A stretch of DNA of 64,000 bases, from assembly GCA_963832655.1 (NCBI GenBank), contig CAWHUW010000009.1, positions 89,675 to 153,674 of the forward strand. Direction: 5' to 3'. The position numbers and the translations under genes are program-made. How positions within the stretch are numbered: position 1 is the stretch's first letter; every line of letters starts with the position of its first letter. Of the stretch, positions 37,517-55,239 are shown piece by piece. The DNA is from an uncultured Thermoleophilia bacterium. GTDB lineage: Bacteria > Actinomycetota > Thermoleophilia > UBA2241. The notes under the pieces were generated by a model, which made no database searches, was not told the DNA's origin, and was given only the letters and a program-made list of their open reading frames with translations.

Positions 37517-38627
37517 ATGTGGCTCCTGCGACGGCAGCTTCTGATCCTCGGCGTCGGCGGCGCTCGTCTGCCCGCTGGCGCTTCTGACAGGCTGCGGCGA
37601 GGCGTCGCCGGCGGACGCGACGAGTCCCACCGCCACCACGGCGGCAGGTGACGAGCTCGTTCTCTTCGCGCGACCGCGGCTGATCGCCGCCGCGGGCTTC
37701 GACCGGCCCCAGCAGGGGCCGCTTCTCGGCGCCGTGCGGGCGCTGCCCTACGACTCCGGCGAGGACATCCTCGTCGATCTCGGCGCGGGCCGCAGGGCCG
37801 ACGTCGTCGAGGTCTGCAGCAACGAGAGCGCCGAGCGTCTGGCACGGCAAGGCCTGCTGCAGCCACTCGACACGAGCCGCATCCCGCAATGGGACCGGCT
37901 CTACCCGGTCCTCAAGGACCTGCCCGGCGTGGTCGTCGACGGCGAGGTCTACATGGTGCCGGTCACCGCGGCCGTGACCGGCATCCTCTACGACCCGGCC
38001 GTCGACGCCTCGCCGCCCGACTCCTTCCGCGACCTGTTCAGTCGCCGCCACAAGGGACACCTGGGCTTCGCCGACGATCCTGCTCTGGCGTTCCAGATCG
38101 CCGCCCTCAACCTCGGCCTGCCCGACCCGGCCGGCCTCGACCCCGCGCAGGCGCTCGAGGCCGAGATCTACCTGAAGCACTTCAAGAAGAACTACCTCTC
38201 CTTCTGGTACGACCTCGACAACCTGGCGAGCGCCTTCAAGGGCGGGCGCGTGACGATCGCCGTCGGCGACCGGCGCGACGCGCTCGAGCTCCAGAGACGC
38301 GACGCGCCGGTCGCCTACGCGCTCGCCGCGGAGGGTCAGCCCATCGCCACCTGCGGCCTCGCGATCACGACGCAGGCGCGCGACCTCGACGCCGCCTACG
38401 CGCTCATCGACTACGCGCTGCGACCGGACACGCAGGCCGCCGTCGCGTCCGCCACCGGCGATCTCGTGTCAAACAGGGACGCCGCGAGGCTGGTCGATCC
38501 GGCCGAGCGCGCCCGTCTCGGCCTCGCCGACCTCGCGCGGCTCGACCGGCCCGTGGCGCGCCCGTCGTCCCTCGAGCATCTCGACTGGATCCAGGCCTGG
38601 TACGAGGTCAAGAAGGGGCGCGGCTGA
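37517..38627 (+). CDS. PotD/PotF-like ABC substrate-binding lipoprotein, divergent (frameshift near 37555)
   Basis: Lipobox LTGC, 'GLLQPLDTSRIP', 'DLDAAYALIDY'. Confidence 0.75.
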
Positions 38628-38773
38628 TGTCAGTGACGGAGCCGCCGTGAGCGGCTCGCGACGGGGCAGGCGGACGGCGCGCGTCTTGTGCACCTCCCGT
38701 CCGCGACCCCGGTCGTCGGCCGCTCTGTCGTCGACCCGGCGCCGGCGCCGAGCCTGACTCACGGCGATTGCTC

Positions 38774-38802
38774 TTGCGAGTGTCGACTGTCGACAGTACG
38801 AT
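38774..38802 (+). promoter_or_regulatory. Promoter with heptad operator in the spacer
   Basis: TTGCGA-N17-TACGAT; GTCGACT-GTCGACA-GTACGAT. Confidence 0.8.
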
Positions 38803-38856
38803 GCGGAGGAAGGAGCGGGCAGGGCGCCTGCTCGTCACGCGCGACTGGGGGAAGCC

Positions 38857-39978
38857 ATGGGTGGCCACAGGAACCGACGGAACGCAGCAGTCGTCGTCCT
38901 TGTACTTGTCTTGCCGCTGCTCGCGATCATCGCGGCCTGCGGGTCGGAGGAGGACGCCGCGCCGTCGCCCTCGGCGACCAGCGGCCCGGTCGCCGGCGAC
39001 CTCAAGCTGTTCGCCTACGAGGACGGCTTCGTGCCCGGGTACATCAAGGGCTTCAAGGAGCAGTACCCGGACGTGAACCTGATGGCCAGCGCGTACGACA
39101 GCGGCGACGCCGCCATCGCCAAGCTACGCGCCGGCTTTGAGGCCGACGTCATCAACCTCTGTGTCGAGGAAAACGCCGAGATGGCGGTGAAGCTCAAGCT
39201 CGTGCAGCCGCTCGACATCTCGCGCATCAAGGACTGGGACCGGATCTTCCCCGGGTTCCTCAAGCTGCCCGGGGTCACGATGCCGGACGGCGAGCACTAC
39301 ATGGTCCCGATCGACGCTGGGCCGACCGGCCTGCTCTACGACACGACGAAGGTCACGCCCGCCCCGACGTCCTTCAAAGATCTCTTCGATCCGAAGTGGA
39401 AGGGCAAGGTCGCCATGATCGACTACCCGGTGACGGCCATCCAGATCGGCGCCCTCGCACTCGGCTACACCGACCCGCTGCATCTTACCGACGAGCAGCT
39501 CGAGAACGTCAAGGACCTCTTCATCGAGGCCAAGAAGAACGGCCAGTTCCGCACCTTCTACCAGACCGATTCGGATCAGGTCACGCTCTTCAAGGGCCAC
39601 GAGGTGTGGCTCATGCCGGGGGGGCGCGGGACAGCGCTCGACATCCAGCGTGAGGATGAGCCGGTGGAGTTCCAGATGGCCGAGGAGGGGCAGATCCTCT
39701 GGACCTGCGGTTACGGCATCAGCTCCAAGACGAAGAACCTCGACGCCGCCTACGCGTTGCTGAACTACTACCTGTCGCCCGAGGCCGAGGCGTACGAGGC
39801 AACGCACTGGAACTACATGGTCACCAACATGGACACCCTCGACGTCGTGGATCCGCAGGTGCGCGAGGACGCGGGGCTCGACTTCGCCAACGACCTGGGG
39901 AACGCGATCCCCGCCGCGCCGCCCACGGAGGGGTACGACAAGTGGATCCGTGCCTGGCAGGAGGTCAAGCGCTATTAG
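38857..39978 (+). CDS. PotD/PotF-like ABC substrate-binding lipoprotein
   Basis: Lipobox IAAC, 'LVQPLDISRI', 'SFKDLFDPKWKGKV', 'NLDAAYALLNY'. Confidence 0.88.
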   Translation: MGGHRNRRNAAVVVLVLVLPLLAIIAACGSEEDAAPSPSATSGPVAGDLKLFAYEDGFVPGYIKGFKEQYPDVNLMASAYDSGDAAIAKLRAGFEADVINLCVEENAEMAVKLKLVQPLDISRIKDWDRIFPGFLKLPGVTMPDGEHYMVPIDAGPTGLLYDTTKVTPAPTSFKDLFDPKWKGKVAMIDYPVTAIQIGALALGYTDPLHLTDEQLENVKDLFIEAKKNGQFRTFYQTDSDQVTLFKGHEVWLMPGGRGTALDIQREDEPVEFQMAEEGQILWTCGYGISSKTKNLDAAYALLNYYLSPEAEAYEATHWNYMVTNMDTLDVVDPQVREDAGLDFANDLGNAIPAAPPTEGYDKWIRAWQEVKRY

Positions 39979-41032
39979 CGGCGCCGTCAGAACCATCGAC
40001 CTGCGCAGCGACACCAAGACGCGCCCCAGTGACGAGATGCGGCGCGTCATGGCCGCCGCTCCGGTGGGCGACGACGAGTCGGGCGAAGACCCGAGCGTCA
40101 ATCGCCTGCAGGAGTACGCCGCCGAGCTCTTCGGCAAGGAGGCGGCGCTCTTCTTCCCGACCGGGACGATGAGCAACCAGGTGGCGCTGCGCGTGCTCGC
40201 CCAGGCCGGCGACGAGGTCTTCATCCACGCCCGCGCCCACATCGTGCAGTGGGAGATGGGCGCGGCCGCCGCACTCTCGGGGCTGCAGCTGCGCGGCTTC
40301 GAGTCGGCCGACGGCACGCTCGACCCACAGGAGATGGAGCAGTTCGTGCGCACCGACGAGGAGGGCGACGACTCCGTCACGCGGGTCGTCGCCCTCGAGA
40401 ACAGTCACAACGCCGCCGGCGGTCTCGTCTATCCGCACGAGCAGGCGCTGGCCGTGCGCGCGTTCTGCGACCGCTACGGCATAGCCCTGCACCTCGACGG
40501 CGCCCGCATCTTCAACGCTCACGTCGCCAGCGGGCGCTCGCTGGCTGAACTGGCGGCGCCGTTCGATACGCTCAACGCCTGTCTCTCGAAGGGGCTGGGG
40601 GCGCCGGTCGGGTCGCTGATGCTGGGCAGCGCCGCGATCATCCGCCGGGCGTTCCGCTATCGCCTGCAGTTCGGTGGCGCGATGCGCCAGGTCGGCATCG
40701 TCGCGGCCGGCGGCCTGTATGCGCTCGAGCACAACATCGCGCGCCTGGCGGACGACCACCGCCGGGCGCGCGACCTGGCCGAGCGCCTGGCCGCCGTGCC
40801 CGGTCTCGCCGTCGACGTCGGCCGGGTGCACACCAACATGGTCATCGCCGACCCGCGGCCGGCCGGCGTGACCGCCGATGCGGTGGCGGAGGCGGCGGCG
40901 CCGGCCGGCCTGCTGGTCGACCCGAACCCCTACGGATTGCGCTTCGTCACGCACCTCGACGTCGACGACGCCGACATCGAGGAGGCGGCGGCGATCACGG
41001 CGGCGACGATGGCGCGCCTGGCGGTCGCTTGA
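39974..41032 (+). CDS. ltaE: Low-specificity L-threonine aldolase family (start uncertain)
   Basis: 'IDLRSDT.T.P', 'PTGTMSNQ', 'LHLDGARIFNA', 'CLSKGLGAPVGS', 'GGAMRQ.G'. Confidence 0.9.
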   Translation: MSGAVRTIDLRSDTKTRPSDEMRRVMAAAPVGDDESGEDPSVNRLQEYAAELFGKEAALFFPTGTMSNQVALRVLAQAGDEVFIHARAHIVQWEMGAAAALSGLQLRGFESADGTLDPQEMEQFVRTDEEGDDSVTRVVALENSHNAAGGLVYPHEQALAVRAFCDRYGIALHLDGARIFNAHVASGRSLAELAAPFDTLNACLSKGLGAPVGSLMLGSAAIIRRAFRYRLQFGGAMRQVGIVAAGGLYALEHNIARLADDHRRARDLAERLAAVPGLAVDVGRVHTNMVIADPRPAGVTADAVAEAAAPAGLLVDPNPYGLRFVTHLDVDDADIEEAAAITAATMARLAVA

Positions 41033-41072
41033 CCCGAGGCTGACGCCGCTCGTAGACTGTCGACAGTAAACC
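41029..41072 (+). promoter_or_regulatory. grd cluster promoter with heptad operator
   Basis: TTGACC-N18-TAGACT; GTAGACT-GTCGACA-GTAAACC, containing the perfect palindrome ACTGTCGACAGT at 41056-41067. Confidence 0.75.
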
Positions 41073-41094
41073 CTGAGCCTTCGGAGGCCGCCGC

Positions 41095-42375
41095 GTGCCC
41101 GCTGCGCCTGTACCATCGCTGGAGCTCGCCACATTCGCCGTGCGCGACATCGTCGCGGGCACCGAGGCGTCGTGGCGCGACGGCGTGCTGACCGTCGACG
41201 CTGCCGGGCTTCAAGAGGCGATCGCGGGCGAGCCGGGACTGCTCGGCGTGACGGTGGACCTCGTGCGCCCGGGCGAGCCGGCACGGGTGCTCAACGTCCT
41301 CGACGCCGTCGAGCCGGCGGTCAAGGCGGATGAGCCCGGTACGTCCTTCCCCGGGGCGCTCGGCACCCTGGCCGTCGCCGGCGCCGGTCGCACCCACCGT
41401 CTCGACGGGGCGGCCGTCCTCGCGACCGCCGACCTGCACGGCACCTATGACGTGACCGCCCTCGACGTGTACCCCGACGGCGACTCGTTCGTGGACATGG
41501 CGGGCCCGGGAGCGGACCTCACGCATTGGTCCGCGACCCACAACGTGGTGGTGAGCTTCGCCTGCGACCCTGGGGCGCCGCCGGCCGAGGCCGACGCCTC
41601 GATCAGGCGGGCGACGCTGCGCGTCGCCCGCGATCTTGCGGCGGCCACTCTCGCGGCGCCGCCCGACCACGTGGAACTGCTCGACCTGCCGGCCGTATCC
41701 GGCGACCTGCCGCGGGTCTGCGTCATCCTGCAGGTCGCCTCCGAGGGACCCCTCGTCGACACCTACCTGTACGGCCGGCCGTTGCACGGCCTCGTGCCGA
41801 CGCTCCTGGACCCGCGCGAGGTGCTGGACGGCGCGCTCACCGCCGGGCAGTACGACTGGGCGGGCGTGCGCGACCCCACCTACTTCTTCCAGCGCAGCAG
41901 CCTGCTGCGCGAGCTCCTGCGGCGCCACGGGGACGACCTCTGCTTCTGCGGAGTGATCCTCACGCTCGGCTATCTGCCGTCCGCGTTCGACAAGGAGCGC
42001 TCCGCGATGATCGCCGCCAAGCTCGCCCGTCAGATCGGCGCCGACGCGGCCGTCCTCACGACCTTCCAGACGGGCAATTCGCACACCGACACGGTGCTCA
42101 CCTGTCGCGCCTGCGAGCGGCTTGGCATCCGCACCGTCCTGCTGCTCGCCGAGACCAACGGTGGCCTGACCGACCACGTGCCGGAGGCCGACTGCATCGT
42201 GAGCGTCGGCAACGAGGAGGAACTCGTCCCCGAGTGGCGCCCGACGCGCGTGTTCGGCGGCGAGCGCACCTGGACGGGCCGGCCGGCCGACGACGCCGGT
42301 CCCGTGCCGGCGGTCACCTACCTCGGGTCACTCTGCCAGATGGGCGACATGAGGCTGCGGGCGGTGTCGTGGTGA
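41095..42375 (+). CDS. Glycine/sarcosine/betaine reductase component B non-seleno subunit (GrdE/GrdG/GrdI-like)
   Basis: 'DLVRPGE..R...V.D.VEP.VK', 'DMAGPGA', 'DTYLYG', 'VPTLLDP.EVLDGA', 'DKERSA', 'GIRTV'; 426 aa; directly upstream of grdB. Confidence 0.88.
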   Translation: MPAAPVPSLELATFAVRDIVAGTEASWRDGVLTVDAAGLQEAIAGEPGLLGVTVDLVRPGEPARVLNVLDAVEPAVKADEPGTSFPGALGTLAVAGAGRTHRLDGAAVLATADLHGTYDVTALDVYPDGDSFVDMAGPGADLTHWSATHNVVVSFACDPGAPPAEADASIRRATLRVARDLAAATLAAPPDHVELLDLPAVSGDLPRVCVILQVASEGPLVDTYLYGRPLHGLVPTLLDPREVLDGALTAGQYDWAGVRDPTYFFQRSSLLRELLRRHGDDLCFCGVILTLGYLPSAFDKERSAMIAAKLARQIGADAAVLTTFQTGNSHTDTVLTCRACERLGIRTVLLLAETNGGLTDHVPEADCIVSVGNEEELVPEWRPTRVFGGERTWTGRPADDAGPVPAVTYLGSLCQMGDMRLRAVSW

Positions 42376-43652
42376 AGGTCGTGCACTACCTCAACCAGTT
42401 CTTCGCCGGGTTGGGCGGCGAGGAGGCGGCCGGCGCGCCGCCGGTGCGCCTCGAGGGCGCCGTCGGTCCCGGCAAGGGCCTGGGCCTCGAGGTGGCCGTC
42501 ACGCTGGCCTGCGGCGACGACTACTTCGGGGAACGTGAGGAAGGCGCGCTCGAGCAGCTCCTGCGCTGGCTCGACGAGGAGCGGCCGGACGTGCTGGTCT
42601 GCGGGCCGTCGTTCGGCTCGGGGCGCTACGGCTACGCCTGCGGCGTGCTGGCGCGCGAAGCCGCGCGCCGCGGCGTCCCCGCCGTCTGCGGCATGCACCC
42701 CGAGAGCCCGGGGGTGCTCGCCGCCGAGGGCGCCGCGTACGTCGTGCCGACCGACGTCAAGGTGACGGGCATGCGCGACGCGCTGCCCAGGATGGCGGCC
42801 CTGGCCCGTCGGCTCGCCGCCGGCGAGGCTCTCGGGTCGCCCGAGCAGGAGGGCTATCTGCCGCGCGGTCTACGCCGTAACGAGATCGCCGACCACACCG
42901 GCGCGGAGCGCGCCGTCGAGCTGCTGCTCGCCAAGCTGGCGGGAGACGTGCGCACCGAGGTCACGGCGGCGTTCGACGACGTCCCGCCGCCGCCGCCGGT
43001 GGCGGACATGGCGGCGGCCACGGTCGCGCTCGTCACCGAATCCGGGCTGGTGCCCAAGGGCAACCCGGATCGCCTCGAGTCCAATCGGGCCCACGTCTGG
43101 CTGAGCTACCCGATCCAGGGACTGGCAGGCTTCGGGGCTGGCGACTGGGAGACGGTGCACGGCGGCTACGACACCGGCGTCGCCAACGCCGACCCGAACC
43201 GGCTGGTGCCGCTCGACGCGCTGCGTCGCGCGGCCGCCGACGGCCGTATCGGGGGTGTGCACGAGACGCTTTACACGACGACCGGCAACTCGACCCCGGT
43301 GGCGACGGCGGCCAAGTTCGGGCAGGAGATCGCGCAGCGCCTGCGCGAAGCGGGCATCCAGGCGGTGATCCTCACCGGCACCTGAGGGACGGGCACGCGT
43401 TGCGGGGCAACGCTGAGCAAGGAGATCGAGCGTGCGGGCATACCGACGGCGTTCATCACGGCGCTGCCGACCATCGCCACCATGGTCGGCGCGAACCGCA
43501 CGGTGCGAGGCATTGCGGTGACCAATCCGGCGGGCGATCCGTCGCTGGGCGCCGCCGACGAACTGGCGCTGCGGCGCCGCATCGTGGAGCGCGCGCTCGA
43601 GATGCTGGCCACCGCGGTGGAGCCCAGGACGGTGTGGGAGGTCGAAGGGTGA
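42372..43652 (+). CDS. grdB: Reductase component B selenoprotein subunit (GrdB-like), Sec at TGA 43383-43385
   Basis: 'VVHYLNQFFAGLGGEE', 'GPSFGSGRYG', 'VHGGYD...NADPNRLVPLD'. The frame continues past TGA as T-U-GTGTRCGATLSKEIERAGIP...VGANR to TGA 43650-43652 (426 aa). Confidence 0.93.
43397..43413 (+). promoter_or_regulatory. Bacterial SECIS element of grdB
   Basis: GCGTTGC-GGG-GCAACGC perfect 7-bp stem starting 11 nt after the UGA, with a G-rich apical loop. Confidence 0.8.
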
Positions 43653-43716
43653 GAGAGTCAGATCGAGGACGGGCGGCGCTGAATGCCGGCCGGCCAGCGG
43701 ACCGGGAGGTCCATCC

Positions 43717-45033
43717 GTGACGCGGCGCGCCGGCATCCTCGCCGCGTCGTTCGTGCTGGAGCACGTGCCGGACCTGGTGCGCTACGGCTCCAAGCCGGCG
43801 CGCGAGGCGCGCAAGTTCGAGACCGTGCGCGACAAGCTGCGCACGTTCGAACAGGCGCGCGGCTACGCGCCGAACCAGGCCTTCATCGGCAACCTGCGTC
43901 CGGAGGAGCTGTGGGACAGGGCGCGACCGTGGTGGGGAGAGCCGGACGCGGCCGCGCCGGCCGCCGGGCCATACGGCGACATCATCGACCAGCGCTCCTT
44001 CTACGAGCTGATGAAGGAGGTCGACCTCTTCGACCTCGTCCGCCTGGGCGAGGAGCCGCGACCGGAGAACGGCGACCTCGCGCTCTACGACGGCGAGGAT
44101 GTGGTCGGCGCCTTCGCGCGCGCCCACGACGAAGACGAGGCCCTGAGCGCGCCCGCCTTGCTCGACAACCTCGCCTGCAAGGCGGGCGGCGTGCACGCGC
44201 TGCGCTTCATGCTTGCGCGCTCGGGCGTCGACCCGGAGTCGATCCGCTACGCGATCGGCGCCGGCGAAGAGGCGGTCGGCGACCGCTACAACCGCGGCGG
44301 CGGTGCGCTCGCCAAGGCGATCGCCGAGAGCTGCGGCCTGGTGAACGCCAACGGCAGCGACGTGAAGGCCTTCTGCACGAGCCCGGTGCACGCGCTGATC
44401 ATGGCCGGCGCGCTCGTCGAGTCGGGGACCTTCGAGCGCGTCGTGGTCGTCGCCGGCGGCTCGCTCGCCAAGCTCGGCATGAAGTTCAAGGGCACGCTCG
44501 ACCGCGGCGTGCCGGTGCTCGAGGACGTGCTCGCCGGCATGGCGATCCTCGTCGGCCAGGCCGACGGCGACACGCCGCGCCTGCGGCTCGACGCCGTCGG
44601 CCAGCACCGCGTCGGCAACGACTCCTCGCAGCAGTCGCTGCTCAAGGAGGTCGTGGCCGTCCCGCTCGACAAGCTGGGGCGCAAGGTGGCCGACATCGAC
44701 GTCTACGCGACCGAGCTGCACAACCCGGAGATCACCGAGCCGGCCGGAGGCTACGACGTTCCAGAGCGCAACTACAAGCTGCTCGCCGCGCTCGCCGTGA
44801 TGCGCGGCGAGCTGGGCCGCGACGAGATGGACGCCTTCTACCGCAGTCGCGGCCTGCCCGGCTTCTCGCCGACCCAGGGCCACATCGCCTCGGCGGTGCC
44901 CTGGGTCCCGCACGCCCTGGACCGCTTCGCGCGCGGCGAGCTCCGCTCGACGATGCTCATGGCGAAGGGCAGCCTGTTCCTTGGCCGCATGACCCAGATG
45001 TGGGACGCGGTCTCCGTCATCCTGGAGGTGTGA
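43717..45033 (+). CDS. grdC: Reductase component C, GrdC-like (FabH-fold) subunit
   Basis: 'LEHVPDLVRYGS', 'EEAVGDRYNRGGG.LAKAIAE', 'AGGSLAKLGM', 'ELHNPEIT', 'GFSPTQGHI', 'KGSLFLGRMT'. Confidence 0.92.
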   Translation: MTRRAGILAASFVLEHVPDLVRYGSKPAREARKFETVRDKLRTFEQARGYAPNQAFIGNLRPEELWDRARPWWGEPDAAAPAAGPYGDIIDQRSFYELMKEVDLFDLVRLGEEPRPENGDLALYDGEDVVGAFARAHDEDEALSAPALLDNLACKAGGVHALRFMLARSGVDPESIRYAIGAGEEAVGDRYNRGGGALAKAIAESCGLVNANGSDVKAFCTSPVHALIMAGALVESGTFERVVVVAGGSLAKLGMKFKGTLDRGVPVLEDVLAGMAILVGQADGDTPRLRLDAVGQHRVGNDSSQQSLLKEVVAVPLDKLGRKVADIDVYATELHNPEITEPAGGYDVPERNYKLLAALAVMRGELGRDEMDAFYRSRGLPGFSPTQGHIASAVPWVPHALDRFARGELRSTMLMAKGSLFLGRMTQMWDAVSVILEV

Positions 45034-45357
45034 ATGGCCGTCGAGGCGACCGTAGAGACCTTCCCCGCGCTGGTCGCGCGGGGCAACGTGCTGATCGACT
45101 TCTGGGGCCCTCGCTGCGTGCCCTGCCTGGCGCTGATGCCGGCGGTCGAGAAGCTCGAAGAGGAGTACGACGGAGGCTTCACGCTGGTCAAGGTGAACGC
45201 CGCCGAGAACCGGCAGATCGCGCGCGATCTCAAGGTCATCGCGATGCCGACGTTCGTGCTGTATCGCGACGGCGCCGAGGTGGAGCGCCTTGGCGGCAAC
45301 CCCTCGGCGGCCGACGTCGGCGCCGCCGTGGCGAGGCTCGTGGAGGGAGGTGAGTGA
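45034..45357 (+). CDS. trxA: Thioredoxin, glycine-reductase-associated type
   Basis: 'DFWGPRCVPCLALMP'. The CVPC active site is the type known from glycine reductase operons. Confidence 0.92.
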   Translation: MAVEATVETFPALVARGNVLIDFWGPRCVPCLALMPAVEKLEEEYDGGFTLVKVNAAENRQIARDLKVIAMPTFVLYRDGAEVERLGGNPSAADVGAAVARLVEGGE

Positions 45358-45815
45358 TGGATCTGAAGGGCAAGAAGGTCATCGCCCTCGGCGAGCGCGA
45401 CAGCGTCTCCGGCGAGGCGATCGCGGACTGCGTGCGCACGGCCGGAGCCGAAGTCGTCATGATCGAGACGGAGTGTTTCGTCTGAACGGCCGCAGGGGCC
45501 ATGGACCCGGAGAACCAGGGACGCATCAAGGCCACGGTCGAGCGCTACGGCGCTGACGACCTGGTGGTGGTGCTCGGAGCGGCCGATCTCGAAGGTCTCG
45601 AGATGGTCGCCGAGACGGTCACCGAGGGCGACCCGAGCTACGTCGGTCCATTGGCAGGGGTCCAGTTGGGACTCCCCGTGATGCACATCTTCGAGGACGA
45701 CCTGCGCGCGCAGGTCGACTCGGCGATCTACGACGACCAGATCGGCTTCGTCGAGCTGGCCGTCGACAGCGACGCCGTCAAGACGGCGATGAAGAAGTTC
45801 AGGGGCGAGGAGTAG
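45357..45815 (+). CDS. grdA: Reductase selenoprotein A, Sec at TGA 45483-45485
   Basis: ATG overlaps the trx stop. Reads MDLKGKKVIALGERD...TECFV-U-TAAGAMDPENQ...GDPSYVGPLAGVQLGLPV (152 aa), with the canonical CxxU motif. Confidence 0.95.
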
Positions 45816-45842
45816 GACACCCTCGACGTGAAAGGGGTCGCG

Positions 45843-46697
45843 ATGTCCGACCTGCTGGGCAGGTTCAGCGTTCTGACCGAGGACCTCGACCACCCCGAGG
45901 ACCTGGTCTGGGACCCGGCGAGCGGACGGCTCTACGCCGGCGGCGAAGCCGGTCAGATCTACGCCGTGGGGCTCGATGGCGAGGTCGAGCAGGTGGCCGA
46001 CAGCGGCGGCGGCATCCTCGGCCTCGCGGTCGACGCCGCCGGGACGGTCTACGCCTGCGACGAGGGGCGCGCCGAGGTGCTGCGCGTGGACCCGCGCTCC
46101 GGCGAGATCGAGGTCTACTCGGCGGGAAGTCCCGACCGCGCCATGATCGAGCCGAACTCCTGCGCCTTCGACGCCGCCGGCAACCTCTACGTCACCGACT
46201 CCTCCGACTGGGAGGAGCAGAACGGCGTGGTCTACCGCATCGCGCCCGGCGGCGAGACTGTCGTGTGGACGGACGCGCTGCGGCGCTACCCGAACGGCTG
46301 CTGCTTCAGCGCCGACGGGAGCTGGCTGTACGTCGTCGAGTCGAGCCTGCCGGGGATCTGGCGGGTGCCCGTCGGCGCCGACGGCGCGCCCGGGTCGCCG
46401 CAGCTCGTCCGCGAGCTGCCGGAGGCTCACGTGCCCGACGGCATCGCCTTCGACGATCACGGCATCCTCTACATCGCCTGCTACCGGCCGGATCGCGTGT
46501 ATCGGCTCGCGCCGGGCGGCGACCTCGAGGTGCTCGCCGACGACCCCCTCGGGCTCAAGCTGAACACGCCCACCAACGTGGCGTTCGTCGGCGCCGGCCT
46601 CGATCGTCTGGCGATCGCCAACGTCGGCGAATGGCACATACTCGTGGGTGACGTCGGCGCGCGCGGCGCGCCGCTCTTCTACCCGACGGTCGGCTAG
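45843..46697 (+). CDS. SMP-30/gluconolactonase family beta-propeller hydrolase
   Basis: 'LDHPE', 'EPN...FDAAGNLYVTDS', 'YPNG..FS.DG', 'VPDGIAFD'. Confidence 0.88.
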   Translation: MSDLLGRFSVLTEDLDHPEDLVWDPASGRLYAGGEAGQIYAVGLDGEVEQVADSGGGILGLAVDAAGTVYACDEGRAEVLRVDPRSGEIEVYSAGSPDRAMIEPNSCAFDAAGNLYVTDSSDWEEQNGVVYRIAPGGETVVWTDALRRYPNGCCFSADGSWLYVVESSLPGIWRVPVGADGAPGSPQLVRELPEAHVPDGIAFDDHGILYIACYRPDRVYRLAPGGDLEVLADDPLGLKLNTPTNVAFVGAGLDRLAIANVGEWHILVGDVGARGAPLFYPTVG

Positions 46698-46738
46698 GGC
46701 GCCGCGCAGGAGCAGACGACCGCGACCGAGGAGGAGCC

Positions 46739-47539
46739 TTGGGACGCTTCGAGGGCAGGAACGTCATCGTGACCGGCGCGTCGAGCGGCATCGGCTGGGC
46801 GATAGCGCACGCCTTCGTCGACGAAGGCGCGAGCGTGTTCGCCGTCGCGCGGCGCGGCGCGCTGCTCGAGGAGATGCGCGCCGCGTCGAGCGCGCCGGCG
46901 CGCGTGCACACGGCCGTCGCCGACGTCGGTGTGCCCGACCAGGCGCGCGGCATGGTGGCGGCGGCGATCGACGCCCTGGGCCGCGTGCACGTGCTGGTCA
47001 ACAACGCGGCCATCATGCCCTACGGCCCCGTGCTGGAGATGGAGGAGGCGACCTGGCGCGACACGCTGGCCGTGAATCTCGACGGGCCGTTCTTCGCCAG
47101 TCAGGCGGCGGCGCGACACATGGTCGCGCAGGGCGGCGGCGTCATCATCAACATCGCCTCCGCGAACGCCTTCAGGGTCGAGTCGCCGGCGGCCAACTAC
47201 AACACGTCCAAGGCGGCGCTCGTGATGATGACGCGCTGTTTCGCTCACGAGCTCGGCCACCTCGGGGTGCGCGCCTGCTGCGTCGCTCCGGGGCAGACGG
47301 TGACGCCGGAGGCCGAGGCCGAGCTCACGCGAGACGAGTACCACCGCGAGTTCGTCGAGTACTGCAGCCGGGTACCGCTGCGCCGTCCCGCGCAGCCGCG
47401 GGAGCAGGCCGCCGTCGTCCTCTTTCTGGCCTCGGACGACGCGTCGTACGTCAACGGCGAGACCGTCGTCGTCGACGGCGGCGAACTCACCGGCGAATGG
47501 TACGACCCGGACCTCAACCCGCCGGTGCCGGAGCCCTAG
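46739..47539 (+). CDS. Short-chain dehydrogenase/reductase
   Basis: TGASSGIG, NNAA, YNTSK, 'FLASDDASYVNG'. Confidence 0.9.
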   Translation: MGRFEGRNVIVTGASSGIGWAIAHAFVDEGASVFAVARRGALLEEMRAASSAPARVHTAVADVGVPDQARGMVAAAIDALGRVHVLVNNAAIMPYGPVLEMEEATWRDTLAVNLDGPFFASQAAARHMVAQGGGVIINIASANAFRVESPAANYNTSKAALVMMTRCFAHELGHLGVRACCVAPGQTVTPEAEAELTRDEYHREFVEYCSRVPLRRPAQPREQAAVVLFLASDDASYVNGETVVVDGGELTGEWYDPDLNPPVPEP

Positions 47540-47552: not shown

Positions 47553-48374
47553 ATGAGCCTCCCGATCGCCGACGAGTGGTTCTCCGCGACGCCCGCCGGC
47601 GCCGGCGTGACGCTGCTCACCGAGCCGTGGGTCGACGAGTTCCTGCGCGCCAACCTGTGGCTGGTCGAGGGCCGGGAGCGCGACCTGCTGATCGACGCGG
47701 GCAACGGCATCGCCCCGCTGCTGCCGGCGGTGCGCGCCCTGCAGGGGCACCCGCGGAAGCCCCTCGTGGCGGTCGTCACGCACACGCACTCCGACCACAT
47801 GGGCGGCCTGCACGAGTTCCCCGAGCGCCTGGTGCACCGGCTCGAGGCCGAGGCGCTTGCGGACGCCGCGGACGCCGCGTGCCTGGTCACCGCGCAGTTC
47901 CCCGCAAGCCTCCTGGCCGAGATCGCCGCCGACGGCCTCGAGCTGCCCGAGGTGCTGCTCACGGCGTCGCCGAGGGAGGGGTTCGACCCCGCGGCATTCG
48001 CCGTCGTCGGGACGACGGCGACCGGCACGCTCGACGAGGGCGACACGATCGACCTCGGCGACCGCGTCTTCGCCGTCCTGCACCTGCCGGGGCACTCGCC
48101 CGGGAGCATCGGCCTTTGGGAGGAGAAGACCGGCGTCCTTTTCTCGGGCGACGCCGTGTACCGCGACGGGCCGCTGCTCGACCAGATGCCGGGCAGTGAC
48201 GTCGGCGCGTACCTGCGGACCATGGAACGACTGCGCGATCTGCCCGTGTCGGCCGTGCACGGCGGCCACGACCCGAGCTTCGCGCGACCGCAGCTGGTGG
48301 CGATCGCCGAGGAGTACGTCGCCCGCCGTGGAGATCAGGATCGAGTCAGCGACACGACTGGGGGATCGCCATGA
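47553..48374 (+). CDS. MBL-fold metallo-hydrolase
   Basis: THTHSDHMGG (HxHxDH), 'PGHSPGS', 'FSGD', 'VHGGH'. Confidence 0.9.
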   Translation: MSLPIADEWFSATPAGAGVTLLTEPWVDEFLRANLWLVEGRERDLLIDAGNGIAPLLPAVRALQGHPRKPLVAVVTHTHSDHMGGLHEFPERLVHRLEAEALADAADAACLVTAQFPASLLAEIAADGLELPEVLLTASPREGFDPAAFAVVGTTATGTLDEGDTIDLGDRVFAVLHLPGHSPGSIGLWEEKTGVLFSGDAVYRDGPLLDQMPGSDVGAYLRTMERLRDLPVSAVHGGHDPSFARPQLVAIAEEYVARRGDQDRVSDTTGGSP

Positions 48375-49487
48375 ACCTTCCGCGACCATCATCCACACGG
48401 AGGCTGCTCGTGCTGGCGACGGCGCTGGCCTGTCTGGCCCTGCTCCTCGTCGCCTGCGGGGACGAGGAGTCCCCCGCGCCGCAGGCCAGCGCCACGCAGG
48501 CCGCCGAGCTCACCGGTAAGTTGACCGTCTTCGCCTACGAGGACGGCCTGGTGCCGGAGGCGATCGGCGGCTTCGAGGACGCAAACCCGGGCCTCAAGGT
48601 CGAGAAGGCGGCATTCAGCACCAACGACGAGGCCGTCGCCAAGATGCGCGCCGGCTTCAACCCGGACATCGTGAACGTCTGCGTCGAGGAGACGGGGCGC
48701 ATGGTCAAGCTGGGCCTCCTGCAACCGCTCGACACGAGCCGCATCACCGACTGGGACAGCATCGTGCCGGCGCTGCAGACGATCGACGGCGTCGTCATCG
48801 ACGGCGAGGTCTACATGGTGCCGACGACCGGCGGCACCGCCGGCATCGTGTACAACCCCAAGGAGGTCCCGCAGGGCATCCCATCGTGGAAGGCCCTGTT
48901 CGAGGACGCCAGTCCTCAAGGGTCGGATCACCCTCGAGGATTCGGCGGCGACGGTGATCCCGATCGCCGCCCTCGCGCTCGGCTACACCGACCCGTTCCA
49001 TCTCACCGACGACGACCTCGACCGCATCGAGGAGTACCTGCTCGCCCACAAGTCGCAGGTGCGGGCGTTCTTCAGCGGCGACGCCGACTTCCTCAACCTG
49101 TACAAGACCGGGGAGATCGTGGGGGGGTTCGCCTGGCACGACTACAAGGTGACGGCCGAGCGGAACGGCGTGCCCGCCGAGTACGTCGTGCCGACCGAGG
49201 GCCAGCTCGCCTGGGTGTGCGGCTACGGCATCGCCAGCGGCAGCGAGAACCTCGACGCCGCCTACGCGGCGCTCGACTGGTACAACTCGACCGAGCCGCA
49301 GGCCTTCTACGCCGAGACCTACACCTACTGGGTCTTCAACCAGAAGACGCTCGAGGTCCTGCCGCAGGAGACCATCGACGCGATCGGGCTCGACAAGCCG
49401 GAGCAGCTCCAACAGGCGATCCCGCTCGTGATCCCCGACAACTACGATCGCTGGCTGCGGGTCTTCCAGAAGCTCAAGGGCGCCTGA
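48371..49487 (+). CDS. PotD/PotF-like ABC substrate-binding lipoprotein (frameshift near 48915)
   Basis: Lipobox LVAC, 'FAYEDG', 'VNVCVEE', 'WVCGYGI', 'NLDAAYA'. Confidence 0.82.
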
Positions 49488-49533: not shown

Positions 49534-50289
49534 TCAGGTCAGGGTCTCGCCGCCGTCCACCACGAGCACGGCGCCGGTCATGAACGACGCCGCGTCGCTG
49601 GCGGCGAAGGCGACCGCCTCGGCGATCTCGTCGGGCTTGCCGTAGCGCCCCAGCGGGATCTTGGCCAGCGCGAAGGCGACCGTGTCCTCGTCGTCCTCGG
49701 CGGTCATGCCCGTCTCGATCCAGCCGGGAGCGACCGCGTTGACGCGGATGCCGAGGGGAGCCAGCTCGACGGCGAGGGAGCGGGCGAACATGTGGACCGC
49801 CGCCTTGGTCGCGTTGTAGGTCGGCGACGGGTCCTTGAGGTCGACGACGATCCCGCTCGACGAGCCGATGGCGACGATCGCGCCGCCGCCTCTCGTGCGC
49901 ATGAGGCGCGCCGCGCCGCGCGCGGTGAGGAAGACGCCCCTGACGTTCACCGCCATGTTCTCGTCGAAGACTGCGGCCGGCAGGTCGAGGATGCTGTAGT
50001 CCTCGTCGGTCTCGATGCCGGCGTTGCACACGCAGATGTCGAGACCGCCGAAGGTCCTCTCGATCTCGGCGAGCAGCTGCTCGACCTCCTCCTCACGACT
50101 CACGTCGCAGCGCGTCCCGGCGACCGCGCCGGCGAGTCCCTCGAGCTGTCGCCGGGCGGCCGTCAGTCGCCCGGCATCCCGGCCGCAGATCATGACCGAC
50201 GCGCCCTCGCTCGCGAGCAGGCGCGCCGTGGCGAGACCGATCCCGCTGCTCCCGCCGGTCACCAGCGCCACTTTGTCGCGGAACCTCAT
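49534..50289 (-). CDS. Short-chain dehydrogenase/reductase
   Basis: TGGSSGIG, CNAG, YNATK, 'IRVNAVAPG'. Confidence 0.9.
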   Translation of the reverse strand: MRFRDKVALVTGGSSGIGLATARLLASEGASVMICGRDAGRLTAARRQLEGLAGAVAGTRCDVSREEEVEQLLAEIERTFGGLDICVCNAGIETDEDYSILDLPAAVFDENMAVNVRGVFLTARGAARLMRTRGGGAIVAIGSSSGIVVDLKDPSPTYNATKAAVHMFARSLAVELAPLGIRVNAVAPGWIETGMTAEDDEDTVAFALAKIPLGRYGKPDEIAEAVAFAASDAASFMTGAVLVVDGGETLT

Positions 50290-51020
50290 GGGGCGTCTCC
50301 CTTCTCCGTCGCGCGGTCGACCCGGGGCGGGCCCGCCTCGTTGCGGAAGGCGTGCCTCGTCCAGGGGCAGACCCAGATGCAGATGCCGCAGATCTCGTCG
50401 AACTCGGGGAAGCTCGACTGGTGGGCGTCGCAGGCGGCGCAGTCGTAGAGGACGCGGCGCGGGATCCCCGCGCGCCACGCGACGTCGCGTCCCGCGCCGA
50501 CCGGGCAGGCGTCCACGCACGCGCGACAGGACCCGCAGCGTCCGGTGGTGACGGGCATGCCGGTCGAGAGCGGCAGGTCGGTGAAGACCGTGCCCAGGCG
50601 CACCGAGGCGCCGAACTGAGGGGTCACGAGGAGGGCGGTCTTGCCGATCCAGCCGAGGCCCGCCTGAGTCGCCGCGGTCTTCGAGGCGAAGATCTCCGGG
50701 TCCGTTGGTCCGTCCGGCGCGTCGTCGTCCACGCGCTCGCCCCGATAGCCGTGCGCCCGGAGCAGCGCGACGCACGCCTCGCCGATCTCGACGAGCTCGT
50801 CGTTGACCCGACGATACTCGCCGACCTCAGCCTCGTTCGGGCCTAGCTCGAGGCCGTCGATCGAGGCTGGCCGCAGCCTCAGGGCGAAGGAGATCGCCGT
50901 GGGCAGGTCGGGCGCCGCCGGCCAGTCGGGTCGCACCGCCGCGGCGCCCCAGAGGTCGACCCCGCGGGCGCCCATGAGCGCCGCCATCGCACGGTCGTCG
51001 AGTGCCTTGTCGTCACGCAT
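50286..51020 (-). CDS. QueG/reductive-dehalogenase-like 4Fe-4S protein, paralog of 7576-8262
   Basis: 'KTAATQAGLGWIGKTALL', CGSCRACVDACP, CGICIWVCPW. Confidence 0.8.
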   Translation of the reverse strand: MRDDKALDDRAMAALMGARGVDLWGAAAVRPDWPAAPDLPTAISFALRLRPASIDGLELGPNEAEVGEYRRVNDELVEIGEACVALLRAHGYRGERVDDDAPDGPTDPEIFASKTAATQAGLGWIGKTALLVTPQFGASVRLGTVFTDLPLSTGMPVTTGRCGSCRACVDACPVGAGRDVAWRAGIPRRVLYDCAACDAHQSSFPEFDEICGICIWVCPWTRHAFRNEAGPPRVDRATEKGDAP

Positions 51021-51062
51021 GGCGAGGCGACCGTAGCACCCCGCCGGGTGAGCCGCAATATC

Positions 51063-51092
51063 GTTGACTGTCGACACTTGACTATGTAGCAT
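51063..51092 (+). promoter_or_regulatory. pot operon promoter with heptad operator
   Basis: TTGACT-N17-TAGCAT; GTTGACT-GTCGACA-CTTGACT. Confidence 0.8.
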
Positions 51093-51156
51093 GCGAGGGC
51101 TGCTCCGTTCGTCGCCGCACTCGTGCCGCGATGTCGTCCCTCCAAGGAGGCCTAAC

Positions 51157-52266
51157 ATGAGCACGAAGAGCCGCGGGCTCGCGATCCTCACCCTGGTCGT
51201 CCTGGCCCTGGCCGTCCCGGTACTGGCGGCGTGCGGGGACGAGGAGGCCAGCCCCTCGCCGAGCGCCACGGCGCCCGTCGAGGTCTCCGGTGAGCTCACC
51301 CTGTTCGCTTACGAGGACGGCTTCGTTCCGAAGTACATGAAGCCGTTCAAGGAGGCCTACCCGGACGTCGATCTCAGGGCGAGCGCCTACGACAGCGGCG
51401 ACGCCGCCATCGCCAAGATGCGCGCGGGGTTCGAAGCTGACGTCATCAACCTCTGCGTGGAAGAGAACGCCGAGCAGGCCGTGCGACTCGGTCTCGTGCA
51501 GCCGCTCGACGTGAGCCGTCTGACGCACTGGGACGAGATGTTCCCGGTGTTTCTGACCCTGCCCGCCGTGACGGCCGAGGACGGCCAGCACTACCTGGCG
51601 CCGGTCGACGCCGGGGTGACCGGGGTCCTCTACGACACGACCAAGGTCACCGAGAAGCCGACGTCGTTCATGGACCTCTTCGACCCCAAGTACGAGGGTC
51701 AGGTCGCGATGATCGACTACCCGGTGACCGCGATCCAGGTGGGCGCCCTGGCGCTCGGCTACGAAGACCCGATCAACCTCACGCCCGAGCAGCTCGACGC
51801 GGTGAAGAACCTCTACATCGAGGCCAAGCAGCGCGGCCAGTTCCGCACCTTCTTCTCCAACGACTCCGAGATCGTCGCTCTGTTCCACACCGGCGAGGTC
51901 ACGATCGCCGTGGGCTACCCGGGGAACGCGCTGGACTCGCAGCGCGAGGGCGACCCGGTGGAGTTCTCGATCTGCAAGGAAGGGCAGATCGTCTGGACCT
52001 GCGGCTACGGTATCAGCAAGACGTGCAAGAACATCGACGCCGCCTACGCACTGATCGACTACTACCTGTCGCCCGAGGCGCAGGCGTTCGAGGTCAATGA
52101 GTGGAGCTACTTCCCCACCCTCGAGACCACGCTCGACCTGCTCGACCCGAAGGTGCGCGTGCAGGCCGAGATCGTGCGCGAGTGGGGGAACATCGTACCG
52201 GCGGCCCCGCCGGCCGAAGGCTACGACGAGTGGATCCGCGCCTGGCAAGAGGTGAAGAGGAGCTAG
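51157..52266 (+). CDS. potD: PotD-like ABC substrate-binding lipoprotein
   Basis: RBS AAGGAGG; lipobox LAAC; closely similar to 38857-39978; first gene of the ABC operon. Confidence 0.88.
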   Translation: MSTKSRGLAILTLVVLALAVPVLAACGDEEASPSPSATAPVEVSGELTLFAYEDGFVPKYMKPFKEAYPDVDLRASAYDSGDAAIAKMRAGFEADVINLCVEENAEQAVRLGLVQPLDVSRLTHWDEMFPVFLTLPAVTAEDGQHYLAPVDAGVTGVLYDTTKVTEKPTSFMDLFDPKYEGQVAMIDYPVTAIQVGALALGYEDPINLTPEQLDAVKNLYIEAKQRGQFRTFFSNDSEIVALFHTGEVTIAVGYPGNALDSQREGDPVEFSICKEGQIVWTCGYGISKTCKNIDAAYALIDYYLSPEAQAFEVNEWSYFPTLETTLDLLDPKVRVQAEIVREWGNIVPAAPPAEGYDEWIRAWQEVKRS

Positions 52267-53183
52267 TGGCGCAGGCCGTACTGCAGAACCCTGGGGCGGC
52301 ACCGGGCGAGGGTGGCATCCCCGTCGCGCAGGTGCCGCTCGGCCTTCGCGTGCGGCGTTCTCTCGACGCCGTCGGGGGGCGCACCTACGCGATCGTGTTC
52401 ATCATGCTGCTCTACGGCCCGCTCGTCCTGCTGGCGGCATTCTCGTTCAACGACTCCATCGTCTTCTCGTTGCCGTGGAGCGGCTTCACGACGAAGTGGT
52501 ATTCGGAGGCGTTGTCCGATTCGAACCTCCGCCAGGCGCTGCGGAACTCGGTGATCGTGTCCAGCATCGTCGCTCCGGCGAGCGTCATCCTCGGGACCCT
52601 CGCCGCGTACCCGATCACCCGTCTGCGCTTCAAGCTGCGCGGCGGGGCCGCCATGCTTCTCGCCGCGCCGCTCGTGGTGCCTTGGCTGGTGATCGGCATC
52701 AGCGCGCTCATCTACTTCAACAAGGCGGGGGTCGCCCTGTCGTGGCACACGGTCGTGCTCATGCACATCGTGGTCACGTTCCCGCTCGTCACGGTGCTGA
52801 TGTCGGCGAGCATGGCGCGTTTCGACCGCACCCAGGAGGAGTCGGCCATCGACCTGGGGGCGTCCCAGCTGCAGGTCGTGCGCCACGTGCTCCTGCCTCA
52901 CATCGCGCCGTCGCTGATGGCCTCGTTCATCCTCGCCTTCTCGTGGTCGTTCAACAACTTCGAGATCACCTACTTCGTCGGCGGCTTCGACCAGCTCTTC
53001 CCGGTCTGGGTGTACTCCACCCTGAGACATGCCTCCAACCTGCCGATCGTCAACGCCGTCTCCACACTCGTCTCGATCGTCGAGGTGCTGCTCGTCTACA
53101 CCTTCTGGGTGCTCATAACCCGGGGCGCCGGCGCCCGCACCTCGAAGGAGAAGACCGACACCCTCATGGAGTCGATCCGCTGA
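52266..53183 (+). CDS. potC: Polyamine-type ABC permease (PotC-like)
   Basis: 'LYGPL..L..FSFN', 'GFTTKWY', EAA loop 'EESAIDLGAS'. Confidence 0.88.
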   Translation: MAQAVLQNPGAAPGEGGIPVAQVPLGLRVRRSLDAVGGRTYAIVFIMLLYGPLVLLAAFSFNDSIVFSLPWSGFTTKWYSEALSDSNLRQALRNSVIVSSIVAPASVILGTLAAYPITRLRFKLRGGAAMLLAAPLVVPWLVIGISALIYFNKAGVALSWHTVVLMHIVVTFPLVTVLMSASMARFDRTQEESAIDLGASQLQVVRHVLLPHIAPSLMASFILAFSWSFNNFEITYFVGGFDQLFPVWVYSTLRHASNLPIVNAVSTLVSIVEVLLVYTFWVLITRGAGARTSKEKTDTLMESIR

Positions 53184-54079: not shown

Positions 54080-54105
54080 GCTGCGACCGGTCCCGAGGAG
54101 AGCGA

Positions 54106-55239
54106 ATGAACGACACCCCCGCGCAAGGCCATATCAGGATCGAGCGCGTCACCAAGAAGTTCGGCGACACGGTGGCGGTCGACGACGTGACGTTCGAGAT
54201 CCCGGGCGGCGAGTTCTTCTCGATGCTCGGGCCGAGCGGCTGCGGCAAGACGACCACGCTGCGCATGATCGCGGGGTTCGAGGACCCCACGGCGGGGCGC
54301 ATCATCCTCGAGGGCAAGGACGTGAGCTTCGTGCCGCCGGCGAAGCGCAACGTGAACATGGTCTTCCAGGCCTACGGCCTCTTTCCGCACATGACGGTCA
54401 GCCAGAACGTCGCCTTCGGGCTCAAGGTGAAGAAGGTCGCGAGAGCCGAGATCGCCGAGCGCGTTCAGGAGGCGCTGCGCACGGTGCGCATGGACGCCTT
54501 CGCCGATCGCCGGCCGGCCCACCTTTCCGGCGGCCAGCAGCAGCGCGTCGCGCTGGCCCGGGCGCTGGTCAACCGGCCGGCCGCGCTGCTGCTCGACGAG
54601 CCCCTGGGCGCCCTCGATCTCAAGCTCCGCAAGGAGATGCAGCTCGAGCTCAAGCGCATCCACGCCACCACGGGGACGACCTTCGTCTACGTCACCCACG
54701 ACCAGGAAGAGGCGCTGACGATGTCGCAGCGCATCGCGGTGATGAAGGACGGCATCGTGCAGCAGGTGGCGACGCCGCGGGAGCTGTACGAGAAGCCGGC
54801 GAACGCCTTCGTGGCCGGCTTCATCGGCACCTCCAACGTGATCAGCGTGCAGCCAGGCGGTGCGCGCGACGGCGTCGCCGTGATGGACCTCGGCGACGGG
54901 GACCGTGTGTGCGTGCCGGACGTCGGCGCGGGAGCTGGTCCAGTGAAGATCATCGTGCGGCCCGAGCGCATGCGCGTGTGGGGCGACCCGGACGGCGAGC
55001 GTATCTCGCGCGTGCGCGGCACGATCGCCGAAGTCGTGTACCTGGGCTCCATGACGCAGTTGATCATCGACCTCAAGACCGGCGAGCGCGTGACCGTGCA
55101 CGAGCTGAACGACGACCTCAAGGGCGCGCTTCCCGAGATCGGCGACCCGGTCCTGGTCCAGTGGGCCGCCGAGAGCAGTTACGTGATCGACGACGCCGGC
55201 GCTGTCAACGTCGCGGCCGGCTCGGCTTCACCCGATTGA
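54106..55239 (+). CDS. potA: Polyamine-type ABC ATPase (PotA-like)
   Basis: [42 protein letters not shown] tail. Confidence 0.93.

Follow-up and report, generated by a model that had tools for sequence, protein, structure and literature searches.

The 64,000-nucleotide stretch of DNA analyzed here (the window) corresponds to positions C9:89675-153674 of a metagenome-assembled genome (MAG) of an uncultured Thermoleophilia bacterium, and carries at 41095-45815 the five-gene cluster grdE-grdB-grdC-trx-grdA, which encodes a selenocysteine (Sec)-dependent reductase of the glycine reductase (Grd) type. The textbook soluble selenoenzyme for energy conservation is glycine reductase, whose GrdD subunit makes acetyl phosphate. 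We found no grdD in this genome or in any of the five genomes holding the same cluster, and we consider it somewhat more probable than the contrary that this is a functional, lineage-wide, GrdD-less reductase in which the acetyl group on GrdC is released not as acetyl phosphate but, most likely, to coenzyme A (CoA). The MAG has 2.70 Mb in 10 contigs, 70% G+C and an estimated completeness of 64.9%; coordinates preceded by C1, C5, C6, C7 or C8 refer to other contigs of this MAG. The nearest public relatives of the locus are MAGs of Thermoleophilia and "Actinomycetes".

Selenocysteine codons and conservation of the operon

Two of the five genes contain an in-frame TGA at a known Sec motif, T-U-G in GrdB (43383) and C-F-V-U in GrdA (45483). 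This had been noticed in a first-pass annotation of the same DNA, which also reported that homology persists beyond both codons, that the genes are closely packed, that lactonase-like, short-chain dehydrogenase (SDR) and metallo-beta-lactamase (MBL)-fold genes come after grdA, and that the 64 kb hold no grdD, trxB or sel genes. We confirmed these observations in all the details that could be checked. The match of the GrdB-like protein to TIGR01918 extends past the TGA to residue 427 and reaches the end of the model. There are 4-nt overlaps (GTGA) between grdE and grdB and between trx and grdA, while grdC and trx abut. None of the five genes showed a frame break, and the module is present in a single copy in the assembly.

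Nine related loci, with GrdE identities of 65-98%, preserved the order of genes for a substrate-binding protein (SBP), an aldolase, GrdE, GrdB, GrdC, thioredoxin, GrdA, the lactonase-like protein, the SDR, the MBL-fold protein and a further SBP. The aldolase gene adjoins grdE on its 5' side in eight of them and lies about 5 kb downstream in the other (L023). More distant copies of the module were found in eight further loci of other Thermoleophilia. All 17 related loci had a TGA at both Sec sites, and the ratio of nonsynonymous to synonymous substitution rates (dN/dS) of the part beyond the TGA was 0.21-0.30 for grdB and 0.14-0.20 for grdA. Both 3' portions evolve under purifying selection.

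The selenocysteine insertion sequence (SECIS) hairpin of grdB, described as clean in the first-pass annotation, is borne out by covariation: three of its six pairs showed compensatory changes and none was broken in 11 of the 18 available sequences, near-identical ones having been left out. For grdA, RNAalifold yielded no common SECIS hairpin, and hairpins were predicted in single sequences only. Fold energies of single sequences were not below those of shuffled ones in this G+C-rich DNA (z = 0.25 for grdB and -1.74 for grdA), and an Rfam scan of positions 40000-47000 at E<=1 returned no SECIS family and three chance-level matches only.

It had been considered beforehand that the genome might be devoid of Sec machinery. 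This is not the case, as selD, selA and selB lie at C1:62891-67463 and a tRNA-Sec gene at C1:84159-84256; together with the covarying grdB SECIS, the elements by which a bacterial selenoprotein is recognized are thus present. SelD (C1:62891-63253) carries an in-frame TGA of its own in the context S-G-U-A-A-K, so that the selenophosphate synthetase of this genome is itself a predicted selenoprotein. Both selD and selA are read in two frames (C1:62891-65468), but the breaks fall at short base runs and selA is intact in the five relatives with the cluster (5/5), and we took them for assembly errors. Apparent long-read errors of this kind, in selD, selA, the SBP gene at 48371-49487 and a gene for an aldehyde ferredoxin oxidoreductase (AOR) that is matched in part only, may also lower the completeness figure.

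Short-read contigs from four public sediment, wetland and soil runs spanned the 4.7 kb piecewise with 90-99+% identity. The sole indel reported with respect to them was at place 42443, in one contig with a depth of 2, and among the 40 listed of the 321 base differences none fell in either TGA. Since there was one indel only, the reading frames did not arise as a long-read assembly artefact. Near-identical DNA was present in 24 listed DNA runs, with sediment and wetland occurrence.

GrdD, GrdC and the fate of the acetyl group

GrdD belongs to the PlsX-like/phosphotransacylase family (Pfam FA_synthesis), and is known to convert the acetyl thioester to acetyl phosphate, as reportedly described by Kohlstock et al. 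2001. The same task is assigned to it in the accessible part of PMC10298544. The GrdD model (NF040747) gave at best 23.6 bits in our genome, for a protein that is the housekeeping PlsX (342 bits with FA_synthesis), and tblastn with a real GrdD gave a best E of 0.21. The five same-cluster genomes yielded no grdD either (5/5); four of them (G037, G061, G206 and G246) are 94-97% complete. Of 301 genomes sampled from the class, 12 had GrdC (NF040746) above cut-off and three more had it in frameshifted pieces, and only two matched the GrdD model at E<=1e-10. One of them (G293) served as positive control, with three GrdD fragments (203, 93 and 83 bits) adjoining its grdC; the other (G213) had a weak match of 43.8 bits and no strong GrdC. 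In a sample of the phylum, GrdD was found in none of 401 genomes at E<=1e-15 and GrdC in 15, a count into which alone the unpublished genomes G443 and G616 enter. Considering both samples, grdD occurs in one of about 26 GrdC-bearing Actinomycetota genomes, many of the others being 92-98% complete. The absence of GrdD characterizes the lineage and does not stem from this assembly; of the two halves of component C, GrdC and GrdD, only the former was found. The grdD of G293 (L049:8748-9735, minus strand), the only actinobacterial one found, lies by a long-form grdC in a genome that has pta and ackA, and this Grd cluster may be a more canonical one, perhaps acquired separately.

The arrangement grdE-grdB-grdC-trx-grdA without grdD was also observed in seven other, differently flanked loci (L044-L048, L050 and L051). 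GrdD-less modules fall into at least three divergent forms, whose flanks are unrelated and have no extra gene in common. A shared stand-in for GrdD was sought in the flanks of these seven modules and none was found; their neighbours include genes for a GyrI-like protein, an acyl-CoA dehydrogenase, a glyoxalase, an isocitrate dehydrogenase, a permease, a DUF169 protein and an AIR-synthase-related (AIRS) protein that is likely SelD.

We did not find trxB in the MAG (best match, 77.7 bits). TrxB was present in 23 of the 24 GrdC genomes searched, that is, in all but this one (21 above cut-off), and our trxB most likely lies in the missing third of the MAG. The searches for AckA and Pta in the MAG were also negative; the former occurs in nine and the latter in two of the 24 genomes, and both are missing from seven short-GrdC genomes with a completeness of 92-97%. 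The first-pass annotation had left two possibilities, namely that the missing genes were elsewhere in the genome or that the system was a new variant. The former holds for the sel genes and tRNA-Sec and, judging from the 23 genomes, for trxB. For grdD it is the latter, as no copy came to light by model search or tblastn of the whole genome or in the same-cluster relatives, and only one of the GrdC genomes of the class and phylum samples had it. On the other hand, its suggestion that thioredoxin is reduced by AOR-derived ferredoxin gained no support and is unnecessary given the distribution of TrxB.

The GrdC encoded here is a short form of about 437 amino acids, without some 35-40 residues between the N-terminal domain and the thiolase core, and NF040746 covers it in two segments (model positions 3-116 and 156-474). 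Short GrdCs are very common in metagenomes: 7213 proteins matched at E<=1e-10, and the best 120 were nearly all of about 437 amino acids. All 125 GrdCs compared, short and long, had Cys220 (125/125), which aligns with the active-site Cys of 3-ketoacyl-acyl carrier protein (ACP) synthase III (KAS III). The AlphaFold2 model (pLDDT 91) had FabH, SpoVAD, ZhuH, OleA and BioZ as top structural matches, and a sequence search of PDB with GrdC returned KAS III only, at about 23 bits.

As predicted from these genes, the complex would consist of a substrate-specific B component (the GrdE-like and GrdB-like proteins), the carrier GrdA, a thioredoxin of its own and GrdC, without GrdD. The Sec of GrdB would attack the alpha-carbon of an X-CH2-COO- substrate, expelling X, and the carboxymethyl group would be handed on to GrdA and its Sec. 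Through its CxxU pair, GrdA would then release it reductively onto GrdC as an acetyl thioester, which we place on Cys220 because of the invariance of this residue and the KAS III-like fold, and GrdA would be re-reduced from NADPH through the housekeeping TrxB and the operon thioredoxin. Since there is no GrdD, the acetyl group needs another acceptor, and the scarcity of AckA and Pta in the 24 genomes speaks against acetyl phosphate in most of these organisms. The acetyl group may accordingly leave GrdC in another form, and CoA would be the most likely acceptor by a reversal of KAS III priming, with acetyl exchange between Cys and CoA. With acetyl-CoA as the product, the role of the enzyme would lie in assimilation or in the uptake of electrons as a sink, and not in substrate-level phosphorylation. 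That the selenoether is resolved differently, by CoA transfer or hydrolysis, had been proposed in the first-pass annotation, and it is also what we infer as best.

The B component, its substrate and competing explanations

The B subunits fell outside the canonical glycine, sarcosine and betaine equivalogs. The GrdB-like protein scored 404 bits with the glycine GrdB model TIGR01917 (cut-off 602.2). With the sarcosine models, the scores were 429.6 bits for GrdF (cut-off 800) and 190.6 bits for GrdG (cut-off 780), and the GrdH model gave 367.5 bits (cut-off 775). Cluster look-ups aimed at labelled sequences of its partner GrdI brought up generic names only. The values for FarE of fluoroacetate reductase (140.3 bits, cut-off 675) and for the D-proline reductase models PrdB and PrdA (85.5 bits, cut-off 300, and 24.2 bits, cut-off 700) were also too low for an assignment to these enzymes; to our knowledge, the Prd system does not use GrdA or GrdC. 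Six other actinobacterial GrdBs and four GrdE-like proteins likewise stayed below the specificity cut-offs.

We aligned the GrdE-like protein with 127 full-length representatives of the 150 nearest 50%-identity clusters (994 match), 23 having been dropped for length. Tyr253 of our protein shares its column with the Cys of the motif V-S-G-N-C-V in GrdE-type proteins of Eubacteriales. The reference for this position was P0222, a 428-amino acid GrdE-type protein of Eubacteriales that had the top GrdG-model score of ten labelled ones, and whose Cys242 we take to be the processing site, that is, the pyruvoyl precursor. Cys242 of GrdE was reportedly identified as such by Bednarski et al. 2001. Of the 128 sequences, 67 had Y, 16 had F and only four had C in this column, and none of the other actinobacterial GrdE-like copies had a Cys there. 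The GrdE-like subunit is thus probably unprocessed. A precedent may exist in FarE which, like the betaine subunit GrdI, has no processing cysteines and is not a proprotein, according to the available text of PMC10838667.

In selenoprotein B, the canonical spacing after Sec is U-x-x-C-x-x-C, and the GrdB described here reads G-T-U-G-T-G-T-R-C, with a single Cys after Sec. A conserved S-T-U-G and a CxxC near Sec are given for the family in the part of PMC10838667 that is accessible. Sequence searches of PDB revealed no solved relative of either the GrdE-like or the GrdB-like protein.

With regard to the substrate, glycine supplied by the adjacent aldolase is a possibility that we entertain tentatively. 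The upstream pyridoxal phosphate (PLP)-dependent aldolase would release glycine plus an aldehyde, and an AOR with its ferredoxin is encoded 10 kb downstream; the absence of the pyruvoyl site from the GrdE-like sequence would argue against glycine as well as sarcosine. To the same tentative degree, the substrate could be an N-methylated or betaine-type derivative of glycine that needs no carbonyl cofactor, since an unprocessed subunit resembling GrdI and FarE would fit a betaine-type or otherwise activated X-CH2-COO-. Against betaine are the low GrdH score and a transporter that is PotABCD-like and not of a betaine type. That the substrate is something else we hold to be only slightly less likely.

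Several explanations compete with that of a functional GrdD-less reductase that delivers its acetyl group most likely to CoA. Acetyl phosphate could still be the product if GrdC, alone or with the housekeeping PlsX, phosphorolysed the thioester, GrdD being then dispensable in the phylum. PlsX is of the same family as GrdD and is encoded in the genome, and of the 23 GrdD-less genomes searched, eight have AckA (G037, with the same cluster, is one of them), so that acetyl phosphate is possible in these. However, 15 of the 23 have no AckA, among them the seven highly complete short-GrdC genomes, and 22 have no Pta, so that acetyl phosphate would have no obvious use there. We know of no PlsX that acts on a protein thioester other than acyl-ACP, and we regard this explanation as unlikely. 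The thioester might also be hydrolyzed, in which case the system would only serve as an electron sink or deaminase, cleaving C-N (or C-X) bonds reductively and yielding free acetate. The lack of AckA and Pta in most GrdC genomes would be compatible with this, and the MBL hydrolase, whose gene is preserved downstream in the nine loci of the sub-lineage (9/9), could act here, being weakly similar to hydroxyacylglutathione hydrolase (47.9 bits, cut-off 200.8). Nevertheless, this glyoxalase II match is far under the cut-off and the thioester would be wasted. Moreover, the seven other modules have no adjoining MBL, lactonase or SDR gene, and thus MBL cannot be a general replacement of GrdD. Hydrolysis seems to us quite improbable.

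An ordinary glycine reductase whose grdD, trxB and ackA belong to the unassembled third of the MAG would be in keeping with the low completeness, to which trxB was apparently lost, and with the glycine-forming aldolase next to grdE. We consider it very unlikely, since grdD was not found in same-cluster relatives that are 94-97% complete, is so rare among the GrdC genomes of the class and phylum samples, and would have to be accompanied by a GrdB well below the glycine cut-off and a GrdE-like protein without the equivalent of Cys242. It is hardly conceivable that the locus is a decaying relic made up of pseudogenes, with true stops at the TGAs. The assembly does contain frame breaks in selA, selD and the SBP gene at 48371-49487, but the five grd genes are unbroken, with one low-depth indel with respect to the short-read contigs, both TGAs are found in 17/17 loci, the coding sequence beyond them is conserved (dN/dS 0.14-0.30), the SECIS covaries and the Sec machinery is present.

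Some observations weigh against the GrdD-less, CoA-dependent reductase that we favour. Among the public runs, no RNA run is listed with the locus. The MAG being 64.9% complete, its own lack of grdD, trxB, ackA and pta carries little weight, and the argument for the absence of GrdD rests on relatives that are not independent of each other; the GrdC genomes are kin and their counts overstate independence. Only one genome (G293), itself frameshifted, provides the positive control for the GrdD model. As this genome has a long-form GrdC together with GrdD, and long forms occur without GrdD too, no feature that would signal independence from GrdD was recognized in the GrdC sequences. The eight GrdD-less genomes with AckA also count here. 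The acetyl-CoA product is suggested by the predicted fold and the gene content. Finally, the glycine-forming aldolase would imply glycine, whose textbook mechanism needs a pyruvoyl group that this GrdE-like protein could not form at the usual position.

We also advance, as a rather doubtful extension, that the Grd system of Actinomycetota is a machine of B, A and C in which GrdC alone is a carboxymethyl-selenoether:CoA acetyltransferase and B works without a pyruvoyl cofactor. If true, this would be a short, ATP-neutral route from glycine or a betaine-type compound directly to acetyl-CoA, and would bear on the reductive glycine pathway by means of a selenoenzyme otherwise known only from ATP-yielding Stickland fermentation. 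The parts are all of known families, and what is new is the composition (B, A and C-beta only), the apparently unprocessed B subunit and the putative lack of an acetyl-phosphate route. Our literature search found no paper on glycine reductase in Thermoleophilia and, in titles and the starts of abstracts, no description of a Grd cluster without grdD. A phylum-level Grd set without GrdD, and mostly without acetate kinase, suggests that either GrdC finishes alone or the product and role differ, and in such a naturally minimal system it can be tested directly how GrdC and GrdD share their work, which has long been unclear. The missing pyruvoyl-precursor Cys touches the old question of whether a carbonyl group activates the substrate and, if so, which one. 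Labels assigned automatically to soil and sediment genes of this kind, "betaine reductase" and "glycine reductase" among them, rest on incomplete complexes, and this also applies to MAGs in which the reductive glycine pathway is called by way of its glycine-reductase branch.

Neighbouring genes, host lineage and related systems

The features of the operon and its flanks are summarized in Table 1.

Table 1. Position and assignment of the features of the grd locus in the window.
Feature	Position	Strand	Basis or remark
PotD-like ABC substrate-binding protein, paralogue 1	37734..38627	+	Pfam SBP_bac_8/1/6; weak PotD match, 61 bits; upstream in related loci
PotD-like ABC substrate-binding protein, paralogue 2	38857..39978	+	Pfam SBP_bac_8, 97 bits
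PLP threonine-aldolase-like (GntG family) aldolase	39950..41032	+	Beta_elim_lyase, 312 bits; GntG, 366.5 bits (cut-off 230)
GrdE-like component B subunit, Tyr253 at the pyruvoyl-precursor Cys site	41095..42375	+	Pfam Gly_reductase, 286 bits
GrdB-family selenoprotein B, Sec TGA 43383-43385 in G-T-U-G	42372..43652	+	TIGR01918, 429.9 bits (cut-off 65)
SECIS-like hairpin of grdB, 14 nt 3' of UGA	43397..43413	+	Fold and covariation
Short-form GrdC (beta subunit of component C) with KAS III-like fold and Cys220	43717..45033	+	NF040746, 527 bits (cut-off 450)
Thioredoxin, CVPC active site	45034..45357	+	Family scores
GrdA selenoprotein A, Sec TGA 45483-45485 in C-F-V-U	45354..45815	+	NF040748, 200.9 bits (cut-off 130)
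SMP-30/gluconolactonase-like protein	45828..46697	+	With the module in this sub-lineage only
Short-chain dehydrogenase, glucose 1-dehydrogenase subfamily	46739..47539	+	223 bits (cut-off 215)
Metallo-beta-lactamase-fold hydrolase	47553..48374	+	Weak glyoxalase II likeness
PotD-like substrate-binding protein, two frames, change near 48950	48371..49487	+	Conserved in related loci

The aldolase remained below the cut-off of the low-specificity L-threonine aldolase model (288 bits, cut-off 312). The genes for the lactonase-like, SDR and MBL-fold proteins accompany the module in this sub-lineage but are no general companions of GrdD-less modules. At least four PotD-like paralogues surround the operon (37734-39978, 48371-49487 and 51082-52266), with a fifth type in related loci, and one PotA-like ATPase (53947-55239) and one permease (52101-53183) serve these binding proteins. 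A minus-strand gene (50286-51308) that separates the cluster from the following binding-protein gene encodes a 4Fe-4S protein weakly similar to QueG (67 bits) and to reductive dehalogenases (46 bits), the two scores being below cut-off. Pairs of AOR and ferredoxin genes were found in the window (55187-57639, plus strand) and at C6:298775-301196 (minus strand), the latter beside pyl genes; the AOR gene at 55187-56542 matches the first half of AFOR_C only. A rubrerythrin is encoded at 22861-23514. Thermoleophilia are known as a class of aerobes; AOR, rubrerythrin and the sediment and wetland occurrence fit an anaerobic or microoxic life, an unusual one within this class.

The wider island contains genes for a class-III aminotransferase, an ornithine/diaminopimelate decarboxylase, an amine oxidase, an ornithine cyclodeaminase homologue and MauE, a content that points to amine catabolism as its likely function. 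The genome also has a pyrrolysine system at C6:288533-297682, with tRNA-Pyl (CUA) at C6:293931-294003, PylD, PylC and a corrinoid protein; a literature search on pyrrolysine in Thermoleophilia found nothing relevant. The MttB family has 35 matches at E<=1e-20, of which at least four contain one in-frame TAG (examples of the family are C5:41187-42581, C8:38381-39751 and C7:30234-31391). Of 18 Grd-less genomes belonging to the same bacterial family, 17 have the expansion as well, with 2-37 matches at E<=1e-60, many with TAG. We had considered the MttB genes of 11 of 24 short-GrdC genomes as a sign of trimethylamine formation from betaine, an idea that was dropped because the expansion in Grd-less kin makes it a lineage trait that is no evidence on the substrate. 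In gene content, the host family shows what appears to be a life on methylated amines, like that of "Candidatus Formimonas warabiya" DCMF. ARAGORN called an 88-nt tRNA-like gene with a four-base anticodon (gagg) at C7:370662-370749, which may be a false call.

DCMF likewise combines a Grd-type reductase and many MttB/pyrrolysine genes with life on methylated amines, and the accessible part of its description (PMC9768040) gives 82 MttB-superfamily genes and a full trxB-trxA-grdA-grdC-grdD-grdG-grdF sarcosine reductase cluster. In contrast, grdD and trxB are outside the cluster described here and the GrdF and GrdG cut-offs were not reached. With the clostridial glycine reductases (Eubacterium acidaminophilum and Clostridium sticklandii) our system shares the CxxU of GrdA, the T-U-G of selenoprotein B, a GrdE-family partner, a GrdC above the NCBIfam cut-off, a thioredoxin within the operon and a SECIS right after the UGA. 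It differs from them in having no GrdD, a GrdB of 404 as against the 602 bits of the glycine cut-off, Tyr at the Cys242 site, a GrdC some 35-40 residues shorter, trxB outside the operon, AckA and Pta mostly absent, and an actinobacterial host with 70% G+C. Betaine reductase (GrdH/GrdI) and fluoroacetate reductase (FarB/FarE) resemble our system with respect to the B component, since their B partner is no pyruvoyl proprotein, as far as the available text of PMC10838667 goes, and the equivalent of Cys242 is absent here. According to the same text, both systems feed GrdA and GrdCD. The scores for GrdH (367.5 bits against 775) and FarE (140 bits against 675) set our proteins apart from them, and instead of a betaine transporter of the OpuD or OpuAC type the window encodes a PotABCD-like one. 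Lastly, the GrdC model resembles KAS III (FabH), ZhuH, OleA and BioZ with a Foldseek probability of 1.00 and a TM of about 0.5, Cys220 lying at the active-site Cys. Unlike these enzymes, to which it is only about 14-22% identical and whose condensation chemistry finds no support here, GrdC has an extra N-terminal domain of about 140 residues and GrdA, not ACP, as its partner.

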